Shown: piece by piece, positions 6,885-9,953 of the stretch | How positions within the stretch are numbered: position 1 is the stretch's first letter | How the letters are laid out: each line of letters starts with the position of its first letter | NCBI GenBank assembly: GCA_039024555.1 | Contig: JBCCQQ010000090.1 | Location: forward strand, 1 to 19,379 | Direction: 5' to 3' | Source of the DNA: Cyanobacteria bacterium P01_D01_bin.156 | GTDB taxonomy: Bacteria > Cyanobacteriota > Cyanobacteriia > Phormidesmidales > Phormidesmidaceae | DNA length: 19,379 nucleotides | Notes under the pieces: generated by a model | The model's database searches: none | What the model was told of the DNA's origin: nothing | What the model saw: the letters and a program-made list of their open reading frames with translations, nothing else | Program-made: the position numbers and the translations under genes

Positions 6885-6962
6885 GGAGGGTGTGAGGAGA
6901 GTCTGAGAGGGAAAGGGTGCCCTAAAGTAATGAAGCCTTTCACAGATTACGGAGTCTGTATC

Positions 6963-7060
6963 GGGCACCCAAAATTTTCAGCTGGAGCACCGCAACAGTG
7001 CGGCCCCGGGCACCCAGAATTTTCAGCTGGAGCACCGAACCAGTGCGGCCCCGGGCACCC
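6963..7060. repeat. 45-bp GC-rich tandem repeat (2 copies plus 8 bp)
   Basis: GGGCACCCA(A/G)AATTTTCAGCTGGAGCACCG(CAA/AAC)CAGTGCGGCCCC at 6963-7007 and 7008-7052, then GGGCACCC at 7053-7060. Confidence 0.92.
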
Positions 7061-7085: not shown

Positions 7086-7649
7086 TTAGCGGACTACTGA
7101 CTTCGTACGAGCATCGAGGCCACTCAAGCGCTCAGCCTGAATGTTTTCAACGGCTTTGGCTTGGTTGTTTAGGTGCTCAACTCGTAGCTTGTGAACAGTG
7201 TTTTTATCACGAGTATCGAGACCGTTTAGACGCTCAGCCTGGATATTTTCAACAGCTTTGGTGCGAATATCCAATGCATCTAGTCGAGCGGCTTGGATAT
7301 CTTCGATAGCTTTAGCCTGGTTGTTTAGGTGCTCAACTCGTAGCTTGTGAACAGTGTTTTTATCACGAGCATCGAGACCGTTTAGACGCTCAGCCTGAAT
7401 GCTGTCTATAGCTTTGGTGCGAATATCCAGAGCATCTAGCCGAGTCGCTTGGATATCTTCAATGGCTTTGGATTGGTTGTTTAAATGCTCAACGCGTAGC
7501 TTATGGACGGAATTCTTATTGCGGTTATCCAGCTCTTCGAGGCGAGTGGACTGAATATTGAAACTAGCGGGCTCGATAGCGGAAGCAACGGGTGCGATCG
7601 CAGTAGAGGCCACGAGAACAGTTAAGGCAGAAAGGATAGTGCGTTTCAT
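7086..7649 (-). CDS. Secreted protein built from 16-18-aa tandem repeats
   Basis: AAGGAG RBS before ATG 7649 and a Sec signal MKRTILSALTVLVASTAIAPVASA. Repeats KNTVHKLRVEHLNNQA / KAIEDIQATRLDALDIRT / KAIDSIQAERLNGLDARD form a 52-aa super-unit. Confidence 0.88.
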   Translation of the reverse strand: MKRTILSALTVLVASTAIAPVASAIEPASFNIQSTRLEELDNRNKNSVHKLRVEHLNNQSKAIEDIQATRLDALDIRTKAIDSIQAERLNGLDARDKNTVHKLRVEHLNNQAKAIEDIQAARLDALDIRTKAVENIQAERLNGLDTRDKNTVHKLRVEHLNNQAKAVENIQAERLSGLDARTKSVVR

Positions 7650-7900
7650 AATTAAAGCTCCTTGGGGCATCAGCGAAGTATGTGTTTGCTTCATTGATTA
7701 CAAGAATGCCGGGGCTAGCTGAACGCTATCTGACCGGTAACTGAACATTGATTAAGACGTTTCTGAATTTGACTGAGGAATGGTGGTGACACCCATCACA
7801 AAGATAAAAATACAACTTGGAAGGTTACAAATAGAGAGATATTAAAGCCGTTCTTTTTAAGATTGTGATGAACATGTTGGCTGGGTGTAAAACCGGTTGA

Positions 7901-7958
7901 TTGGGGCTCCTCCGAGTTCCCCAAACCCCTATGGGCAGGGCGGAAACCGCCGCCCTAC
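7901..7958. repeat. Two adjacent GC-rich hairpins, one resembling a GTAG-type REP
   Basis: Minus strand GTAGGGCGG-CGGTTT-CCGCCCTGC (7958-7935), and TTGGGG…CCCCAA (7901-7924). Confidence 0.45.
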
Positions 7959-8060
7959 GACCCGTCATGGGATTTGTCAACAGAAGGTCGCAGCCGTCCG
8001 CGAAAGGATTGTGTGGCCTTCCCGTAGCTTGAATGATTGAGACTGATGTGAACAATGAAA

Positions 8061-8281
8061 TAACGTCTTTGCAATACTGAGTATTGGGGTCGTTCAATGT
8101 GCTCTAACGATGTATCAACAACCAGTCATTCGTAGTCACCATCGTAACAGTGCCACAGTTTCCCTATTCGCTATCATCGAGGTTACGCCCCACTCACAGA
8201 TCGTAGTCGTTAATCAAATAACCGCTTTACAGGGTCGTAGTCGGGGTCATAACGCGATAGATAGATTACTCGTCGTTAGAG
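8061..8281. ncRNA. Candidate bridge/seek-type guide RNA with periodic motif array
   Basis: Non-coding region directly 3' of the IS110 gene. It has GACTACGA x3 plus variants at ~35-nt spacing, alternating with GTTA, and a 9-bp closing stem at 8102-8110/8273-8281. The transcribed strand is not determined. Confidence 0.55.
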
Positions 8282-8352
8282 AGAAGAGAATTGACCACGG
8301 ATAGATGCGGACCTCCTTCCTGTTAATCAATTGTGATGTTACGCTCAGCTGC

Positions 8353-9414
8353 TCAGCTGGACTCACCAGGATAGCCCAGTTGGTAGTGTTCTCCTTTACG
8401 GAAGGCTGCGCGAATCTTGCCAATCAGTTTACGAGCCACTGCAATGATGGCGCGTTTCTTCCCAATGCGAGGGTGTAGCCTGTCAAAAAAGGCCGTCAAG
8501 GTTGGGTCTTGTCGGACGGCCCGCCAAGCAATCTCTAATAAGATTCCTCGTAAATGACGATTCCCTTGTTTAGTAATGTGGCCTCGGCGGACATGATCAC
8601 CAGATGAATGTTCACTGGGCGTTAGACCCGTATAACTAAATAGGCTTCGTTCATTCTTGAACTGGCTCATATCGCCCAGTTCATTCGACAATACCCGAGC
8701 ACTAATTGGGCCAACCCCAGGCACCGATTGATACGTCGCCTCATTCGTATCTTCTGTCGCTTGCCGTTTGAGTTGGTCGACTAGATGGTTAATCTGATGG
8801 TCCAGCGCTTGCCAGATCTGCCAGAGGGCTTCGATAGCTATCGTAAACACCTCGTTCGGAGAACGTTCGAGGAGTTCCTGAAAAACACGAGCACTCATCT
8901 CTCGGCTATCCTCGGGGGCAATCAGGCCAAATTGATGGGCTTTGGCTCTTATTTGCTGTTTTACTCGACTTCTTGCGTGGACCAGTTGCTCACGGGTACG
9001 ACTGAGTAAGCGGGCCTGCTCTTGCACTTCACTGGGTATATAGATCCCTTTGAGACGTCCTGCTTCCAACTGTTCAGACAGTTTTGACGCATCTCGTTTG
9101 TCAGTTTTCACCCGGCTATGAGCGGCTACCTCCACAGCGGCAGGATGCACCACAACACTGTCGATACCGACTCCCTTCAGGGCTCGGTGTAAGCCAAAGC
9201 CACTAAACCCGGCTTCATAGACGGTGTGAATCGTGCCGCCTTTGAAAAACTTCAATAGCTGATTGGCAAAGGCACTTGGATACGATGCTGTGGTCCATTT
9301 CTTGACAATGGTTTGGCTGACTCGAACGACAACGACATACGTTCTTTTATGGACATCAATGCCAACGTAGATATCTTCACCGTCGTATGATTTTGATGGT
9401 GTGGTGGTTTTCAT
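8353..9414 (-). CDS. IS110-family transposase/recombinase (DEDD RuvC-like + Tnp20 domain)
   Basis: YVGIDVHK, YEAG and KTDKRDA supply D-E-D-D. Also SVPGVGPISA, YTGLTPSEHSSG (catalytic Ser region), ITKQGNRHLR and AIIAVARKL. GAGGT RBS before ATG 9414; 353 aa. Confidence 0.96.
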   Translation of the reverse strand: MKTTTPSKSYDGEDIYVGIDVHKRTYVVVVRVSQTIVKKWTTASYPSAFANQLLKFFKGGTIHTVYEAGFSGFGLHRALKGVGIDSVVVHPAAVEVAAHSRVKTDKRDASKLSEQLEAGRLKGIYIPSEVQEQARLLSRTREQLVHARSRVKQQIRAKAHQFGLIAPEDSREMSARVFQELLERSPNEVFTIAIEALWQIWQALDHQINHLVDQLKRQATEDTNEATYQSVPGVGPISARVLSNELGDMSQFKNERSLFSYTGLTPSEHSSGDHVRRGHITKQGNRHLRGILLEIAWRAVRQDPTLTAFFDRLHPRIGKKRAIIAVARKLIGKIRAAFRKGEHYQLGYPGESS

Positions 9415-9560
9415 GAGGGCTACCTCTGAGCTTAGGTCTAGTAACTGCAAGCTACGGGTCAAGACGCTGTTTTGGAAAGCATCACACTATCCACCATAGG
9501 GACACGGACTAGAGGGCTTTGGTCAATAGCCCATTGGGTTGGGGGTAGTCGGTAAAGCAG

Positions 9561-9596
9561 TTTAGAATTTTACGCTCGACCGCGCAAAATTCTAAA
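9561..9596. repeat. Inverted repeat/hairpin upstream of the IS
   Basis: TTTAGAATTTTACGC / GCGCAAAATTCTAAA, 14 of 15 paired, 6-nt loop. Confidence 0.6.
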
Positions 9597-9732
9597 AAGG
9601 GTGATTCCATCGATATTTTTCTAATTGATGGTTAAAGAACGTTTTTTTACAGAGGTTTTATCTCCGTTCCAAGAAAGCCTGACATGTCCATTAGACACCT
9701 TAATTTTTTACGGTGTGGAGCATAATGGGTCG

Positions 9733-9953
9733 CAGCGTAACCTACCTAACCAACTCCCCCATCAATGGTTGTAGCATTTAGCCAATACCCTCTTGTGCAA
9801 CGGGAAACCCCAGTATCCTAAATGGGACGGCCTATATGTTTCCGAGAAGGGACGTTGAGGTCCCCAGAACAGGGAGGTAAACCCCAGTATGCCTAATTGG
9901 GAGAGCCTTGATACTTCCGAATAGGAGGGAAAGTCCTGAGCGTCCCTTTTCTC
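9733..9953 (+). ncRNA. Candidate sRNA, PsrR1(SyR1)-like 5' module followed by a duplicated stem-loop module
   Basis: -10-like CATAAT at 9721-9726. CAATACCCTCTTGTGCAACGGGAAAC…GTTTCCGAG resembles my recollection of the PsrR1 core. There is a 74-nt-offset degenerate repeat, and a terminal AGGGA/TCCCT hairpin with a T-rich tail. Confidence 0.45.

Follow-up and report, generated by a model that had tools for sequence, protein, structure and literature searches.

A cyanobacterial IS1111-group insertion sequence and the probable two-loop bridge RNA or long seekRNA gene behind its transposase

The insertion sequence, its ends and its target

The window, which is the whole stretch of 19,379 bp that was analysed, carries a complete insertion sequence (IS) on its minus strand. 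The element is an intact member of the IS1111 group of the IS110 family. Its main parts are the following.

7964..9504, minus strand: complete IS1111-group insertion sequence, 1541 bp; its flanks are adjacent in uninterrupted repeat copies
8353..9414, minus strand: transposase gene, 353 aa, with a DEDD/RuvC-like N-terminal domain and a PF02371 C-terminal domain
7964..8352, minus strand: non-coding region of 389 nt on the 3' side, long compared with the 90 nt upstream (from ORF and junction coordinates)

The transposase was matched by Pfam PF01548 (2e-15) and PF02371 (1.7e-24). NCBIfam NF033542 gave 238 bits with a cut-off of 140, and PDB 8wt6 (IS621/IS110-group) matched the protein with an E value of 2.2e-08. 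Homologous transposases align from residue 1 of the 353-aa translation. According to the available text of PMC11187229, IS1111 elements have their non-coding region downstream, carry the motif GL-P----S(T)G and encode seekRNAs. In the translation, this motif is found as GLTPSEHSSG in the C-terminal domain, and the longer non-coding side lies downstream of the transposase gene (389 vs 90 nt). Sub-terminal inverted repeats of 7–17 bp were also part of the IS1111 test. When the left end was locally aligned with the reverse-complemented right end, 682 of 1000 shuffles scored as high or higher. By eye, only ATGG..GGAT against ATGGGAT was found, a 7-bp repeat interrupted by a 2-nt gap; relatives show it more clearly.

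The ends were determined by a search of the element's own genome with 7700-9800. The flanks 9505-9798 and 7812-7963 are contiguous on contigs C21, C16, C5, C13, C26, C40 and C1. Because these uninterrupted repeat copies join the two flanks, both ends of the IS are fixed at 7964 and 9504. Four exact empty target sites are present in the genome. The target of insertion is a multi-copy genomic repeat, as expected of site-specific insertion, and the insertion point reads ...GTCCG / NG / GGTCGTAGGG.... The core dinucleotide is TG at the left junction. At the right junction it is G in the window copy, which is one base shorter there than the empty sites predict, or AG in the copy on C95. Contigs C95 and C130 each end at another junction of this IS. 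A single complete guide RNA copy was found in the assembly by the covariance model search, and the remaining IS copies are cut off by contig ends.

Several observations touch on the repeat and the surroundings of the element. The repeat split by the IS is about 446 bp long and is uninterrupted on at least seven other contigs at 71–93% identity. A 75-nt piece of it (7963-7889) is present many more times than the whole repeat, and no Rfam family was found for the ~446-bp repeat. The one-base junction pattern of the window element is also seen in the relative L085. Some contigs of runs X1 and X2 join across the IS (e.g. from 7962 to 9503). These joins showed 90% likeness and are best read as other, empty repeat copies rather than as a sign of excision. 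Run X2, a microbial-mat metagenome, also contains pieces of the IS (8046-8502 and 9004-9458, 0–3 differences each), which include the guide RNA region and differ there at 8081 and 8100, outside the guides. A CP12 gene was found near the IS in the Pfam scan; like the relatives of the transposase, it indicates a cyanobacterial host. A 202-aa ORF at 7086-7694 on the minus strand consists of 2.3 tandem copies of a 156-nt repeat (87% matches) and gave only a sub-threshold Pfam match, to Peptidase_M73. A separate 45-nt tandem repeat (2.2 copies, 6962-7060) lies just downstream of this ORF.

The predicted guide RNA and its relatives

The region 3' of the transposase is very probably the gene of a bridge RNA or long seekRNA that belongs to the intact element. 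An earlier note on this DNA had already expected a guide RNA of the bridge/seek type in the non-coding end of this IS110-family element, and the comparison of sequences points the same way. In the covariance-based model, the RNA has an outer stem that surrounds a target-binding loop as well as a donor-binding module, with four guides about 35 nt apart. The predicted parts are listed below; T and B denote the guides for the top and the bottom strand.

8102..8281, minus strand: predicted guide RNA bounded by helix P1 (strands 8281-8273 / 8110-8102)
8182..8253, minus strand: target-binding loop arm; outer stem 8253-8242/8192-8182, inner hairpin 8230-8203, small and variable
8231..8240, minus strand: target guide T (CTACGACCCT), for pairing with the top strand to the right of the insertion point
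8195..8201, minus strand: target guide B (ATCTGTG), core TG at 8196-8195, same sense as left flank and core GTCCG-TG
8181-8168, minus strand: linker of the donor module
8161..8167, minus strand: donor guide T (ATAGGGA), reverse complement of left-end TCCCTAT at 9502-9496
8131..8157, minus strand: donor-module hairpin, stem 8157-8147/8142-8131, loop TACG; the 8-mer at 8137, discussed below, forms the 3' strand
8123..8130, minus strand: donor guide B (AATGACTG), right-end ATGAC and core TG (8124-8123)

The inverted repeat 8102-8110/8273-8281 had been noted before as a perfect 9-bp stem. It is indeed perfect and is a true enclosing helix, P1. Its pairing continues to about 8298/8083, and the minimum free energy fold of 8310-8080 recovers it. 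The two flanks of the core were compared in 66 homologues: their median duplex energy is –21.7 kcal/mol with the own partner and –12.4 kcal/mol when they are taken from mismatched elements. The whole 389-nt non-coding region, on the other hand, did not fold better than its shuffles (z = 0.41).

Relatives were collected by protein scans, which gave 45 transposase loci in genomes and 80 in metagenomes. Their regions after the stop codon have a common conserved core of about 140–150 nt. RNAalifold on 10 sequences gave 27 pairs, from which the covariance model R1 was built. In 88 sources, R1 picked up 76 matches of full or almost full length, of which 68 are distinct. Every match is on the transposase strand, and at the loci where the gene position was read, the matches are downstream of the gene. 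In the R1 alignment (A3), standard pairing holds in 92.3% of 1745 cells, and two-sided changes are seen at 24 of the 27 pairs; this alignment is fitted to its own model, which favours the pairing figures. None of 500 shuffled controls reached its pairing measures, and sliding the partners by 1–3 columns lowered the pairing to 25–52%. The outer stem of the target arm (helix 1) has two-sided changes in 10 of 11 pairs with 94.1% of cells paired, and the donor hairpin (helix 5) in 10 of 11 pairs with 90.4%. A compensatory change is seen in the window itself, where the stem reads GTTATG/CGTAAC and most relatives have GCTGTG/CGCAGC. A further stem, proposed by RNAalifold from 13 extended sequences between the donor T-guide region and the part past the donor B guide, was rejected, as 0 of its 7 pairs showed a two-sided change.

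R1 also matched a plasmid copy of Acaryochloris marina with 95.9 bits. At the locus behind the enterobacterial ISSso6 transposase (33% identical), R1 detected no RNA. Therefore, a link at the level of sequence between the R1 RNA and the experimentally studied seekRNAs was not made. The Rfam scan of 7600-9900 with E up to 10 returned only chance snoRNA and hammerhead matches far below the thresholds, so the RNA model is the analysis's own.

Some relatives have peculiarities of their own. The closest named relative is Leptothoe spongobia (L031), whose transposase is 83% identical. It carries about five tandem 44-nt units (L031:2572-2790) after the stop codon and ahead of the guide RNA, and the unit includes the last bases of the transposase gene. 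A metagenome contig (L144) has two guide RNA copies of equal score (2299-2439 and 2769-2909), 470 nt apart behind a single transposase gene. In L075 (1575-1709), a guide RNA stands beside a transposase fragment of only 45 aa and its target guide mismatches the flank; it may be a decayed or orphan copy.

The four guides and the periodic motifs

The guide assignment was examined in the elements whose ends could be called by pattern, which were 26–28 of the 68 distinct ones; the rest are without flanking DNA or off-pattern. The right end was called in 27 elements and the left end in 27–28. Target guide T is the reverse complement of AGGGTCGTAG in the empty sites. Its longest common substring (LCS) with the own right flank had a median of 8, against 3 in 640 non-own pairs (n=26), and an LCS of at least 6 was reached with 77% of the own flanks and 2.5% of the non-own pairs. 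In the window, the LCS is 9 with the own flank and 10 with the empty sites. Target guide B was compared in a fixed register. It matched the own left flank and core at a mean of 5.59/7 and those of other elements at 2.78/7 (n=27); the window guide is 5/7 exact and 7/7 when G-U/G-T wobble is allowed. The two target matches thus fall one on each strand and overlap at the insertion point, with T 5' of B. The same arrangement, T before B with an overlap at the insertion point, is given for IS1111 seekRNAs in the available text of PMC11187229. Across the family, the target guide columns are the least conserved and hold almost no information, while the core G is conserved at 99% and 97% in the two B guides. 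Variable guide loops are surrounded by conserved, covarying stems, in an alignment fitted to its model.

The donor guides match the element's own ends, the T guide more weakly in relatives. In donor guide B, the triplet that precedes the core (RNA columns 230-232) is the same as the final 3 nt of the right end for 24 of 27 elements, in five variants. The permutation control gave a mean of 7.7 and a maximum of 15 (of 27), and for two of the three misses the right end seems, by eye, to have been called wrongly. Its core equals the left-junction dinucleotide in 26 of 27 elements. Donor guide T is exact over 7 nt in the window and imperfect in many relatives (median LCS 4 vs 3). Nevertheless, it changes with the class of the left end (TYCCT/AGGRA, TTGCT/ACAACT and TTACT/ATAACT).

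The weak donor T-guide matches in many relatives would suit a different reading, in which only the target half acts as RNA, as a short seekRNA of about 80–100 nt, the ends are recognised by protein and the donor-like segments take no part in RNA-DNA pairing. In the available text of PMC11187229, an 82-nt short seekRNA of ISEc11 was sufficient in a mini-IS assay. The tracking of five right-end variants and of the core by donor guide B is hard to explain without selection for pairing, and therefore it counts against this reading. The donor hairpin covaries too. A purely target-side RNA is thus considered improbable, and the full-length RNA with both modules is preferred.

The periodic motifs, from which the earlier note had started, can be described on the full-length RNA. 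Six 8-mers are present on the minus strand at 8277, 8242, 8208, 8175, 8137 and 8097, with spacings of 35, 34, 33, 38 and 40 nt, and GTWA occurs six times (minus-strand starts 8253, 8222, 8186, 8148, 8108 and 8064). The gap from GTWA to the next 8-mer is 7 nt in four of five cases. All these counts were reproduced. The places of the 8-mers in the predicted RNA are as follows.

8277, minus strand, AACGACGA: 5' strand of P1
8242, minus strand, GACTACGA: G that closes the outer stem, then a single unpaired A, then letters 1–6 of target guide T
8208 and 8137, minus strand, both GACTACGA: the inner hairpins' 3' strands, each stopping directly ahead of a B guide
8175, minus strand, GATAGCGA: linker before donor guide T
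8097, minus strand, TTGAACGA: flank outside the conserved core

The four central 8-mers sit at the four guide segments. They recur because each inner hairpin ends with ...ACTACG directly before a B-type guide, and the CTACGA in target guide T is a coincidence of the element's target. The guide positions recur at about +19, +50–57 and +123–132 of the core across relatives, so the ~35-nt rhythm is a real feature of the whole family that reflects the four guides. Exact GACTACGA has only three copies in the 19,379-bp window on either strand. The density in 8050-8300 exceeds that of the whole minus strand 3.6-fold for CGA and 4.3-fold for GTWA. The six 8-mers have only ...CGA in common, and they use 6 of the 11 CGA in 8050-8300, as the GTWA series uses 6 of 8.

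Conservation of the motifs was scored in the 67 other distinct RNAs; the motifs at 8277, 8108, 8097 and 8064 are outside the modelled core and not part of these scores. The 8-mers at 8208, 8175 and 8137 are partly kept, with mean identities of 4.78/8, 4.30/8 and 5.87/8. The 8242 8-mer is not (mean 2.43/8, fully identical in 0 of 67), nor is GTWA: none of the 67 has it at 8253, 8222 or 8186, and 13 of 67 have it at 8148, in the hairpin loop. Two of the GTWA are created by the compensatory change of the window stem described above. The closest relative, L031, has GACTACGA once. Among the compared sequences, GTWA and the triple identical GACTACGA are peculiar to the window copy.

These results bear on the proposal of the earlier note that the region is a multi-loop bridge RNA with five to six equivalent protein-binding/guide modules set by the 8-mer and GTWA. 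The proposal draws on the six CGA-ending 8-mers at 33–40-nt spacing with their regular 7-nt gaps, on the three exact GACTACGA copies and on two extra target-like heptamers that flank P1 (8301-8295 and 8093-8087). Guide behaviour, however, is seen in four segments only. The 8-mer at 8242 is itself part of a variable guide, the one at 8277 is a P1 strand and the one at 8097 lies outside the conserved core. At three of the four sites scored, none of the 67 relatives has GTWA. The heptamers are missing from the closest relatives L031 and L076, and about one chance 7-mer match per element is expected by estimate. Equivalent modules are therefore very improbable, and the motifs fit the standard two loops with two guides each. 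The earlier note had named a standard two-loop RNA that explains the motifs as the outcome that speaks against its proposal. This outcome has in part been reached, as the region fits such an RNA and its layout covers all the motifs.

The same note had placed the region between bridge RNAs and TIGR arrays, a placement that falls away because the region fits the standard two-loop layout. TIGR-Tas systems have a tandem repeat-spacer array of ~36-nt units and a Tas (Nop-domain) protein. A tandem guide array processed to ~36-nt units has next to no probability here: the ~35-nt period and a sub-threshold match of NCBIfam TIGR_Tas_endo to residues 134-304 of the transposase (P0001; 27.8 bits, cut-off 100) speak for it, but Tandem Repeats Finder detected no array in 8061-8281, none of the 7 ORFs scanned against Pfam is a Nop-domain or Tas-like gene, the segments belong to a single covarying fold, and the 8-mer/GTWA motifs are not conserved in relatives. 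The weak endonuclease match would fit a distant kinship of the protein families rather than membership.

Relation to known systems and a proposed mechanism

The two-loop guide RNA is of a kind that is already known from a system described in 2024, and the cyanobacterial IS1111 lineage adds another member. The closest known elements are the IS1111 seekRNA elements ISEc11, ISPa11, ISKpn4 and ISPst6, as far as they are described in the available text of Siddiquee et al. (2024, PMC11187229). According to the same text, they resemble the window element in the non-coding region that lies downstream of the gene for the transposase, in a transposase of ~350 aa with GL-P----SG, and in a top-strand match that lies 5' of the bottom-strand match and overlaps it at the insertion point. 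Their stems are likewise conserved, their guides vary with the target and their insertions are in repeated sequence. In the available text of PMC11208160, a right-end bridge RNA is predicted for 93% of IS1111 elements, and the findings of both papers are summarised in PMC13604230, as far as its text is available. The window element differs from the ISEc11 group in its cyanobacterial lineage, whose best named relatives lie on Acaryochloris plasmids (~61% identity). Its predicted RNA shows no sequence similarity to enterobacterial members by R1, and its sub-terminal inverted repeats are weak.

The core of IS621 is CT, whereas that of the window element is NG (TG in this copy). In the available text of Durrant et al. 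(2024, PMC11208160), the IS621 bridge RNA also has two modules with one guide per DNA strand each, a common core dinucleotide that is read in both modules, and a recombinase of the DEDD type. Compared with IS621 as described there, the RNA of the window lies in the right end instead of the left, and the guide order is reversed. Unlike in IS621, one outer stem encloses both modules of the window RNA, and the donor guides are on junction strands. The likeness to TIGR-Tas consists of the ~35-nt guide spacing and of guides that address both DNA strands; the window has neither tandem repeats nor a Tas protein, and its segments are in a single folded RNA.

A small chance is given to the idea that this cyanobacterial IS1111 clade has an undescribed layout. 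It would comprise the long outer helix around both modules with the donor guides placed on three-way junction strands, an identical hairpin end (T-G-Y...R-C-G) before both bottom-strand guides, and a free first core position (TG left; AG or the one-base-shorter G right). In a bolder version, the heptamers 8301-8295 and 8093-8087 may be a third, outer pair for target recognition. The two heptamers pair with each other; one equals the target top strand across the insertion point and the other copies 7 nt of guide T.

A striking periodic motif pattern is thus explained by a system described in 2024, and the knowledge of its mechanism is unchanged by the finding. What is provided is an annotation at the level of coordinates, with four guides, core, ends and natural target, for a cyanobacterial IS1111 lineage. 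In addition, the covariance model that finds 68 distinct relatives is useful for genome annotation and for choosing RNA-guided recombinases.

By analogy with IS621 and ISEc11, the RNA would be made together with the transposase message or after it. The transposase would bind the RNA, and the RNA would pair with both strands of target and donor. In the target loop, the T guide, whose complement is the top strand to the right of the insertion point, is followed by the small hairpin and then by the B guide. In the donor module, the order is a guide complementary to the left end, the conserved hairpin and a guide identical to the right end and core. The pairing with target and donor would position the DEDD/Ser recombinase, and the circle would be inserted at ...GTCCG-NG-GGTCGTAG... 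in the genomic repeat.

As for the source of the RNA, the sigma-70 scan of 7900-9560 found no minus-strand promoter ahead of it, and the terminator scan of the same range found one hairpin-like candidate (8003-7988), no more than in shuffles. Circularisation would bring together two elements from the ends of the IS.

7975..7980, minus strand: TTGACA near the right end; in the circle, 17 nt before left-end TATGGT (9498-9493)

By the same analogy, the TTGACA-17-TATGGT promoter formed in this way would be the probable source of the RNA. The spacing suggests that the pair may act as a junction promoter, and the relative L048 has the same 11+2+4-nt spacing between TTGACA and TATGGT.
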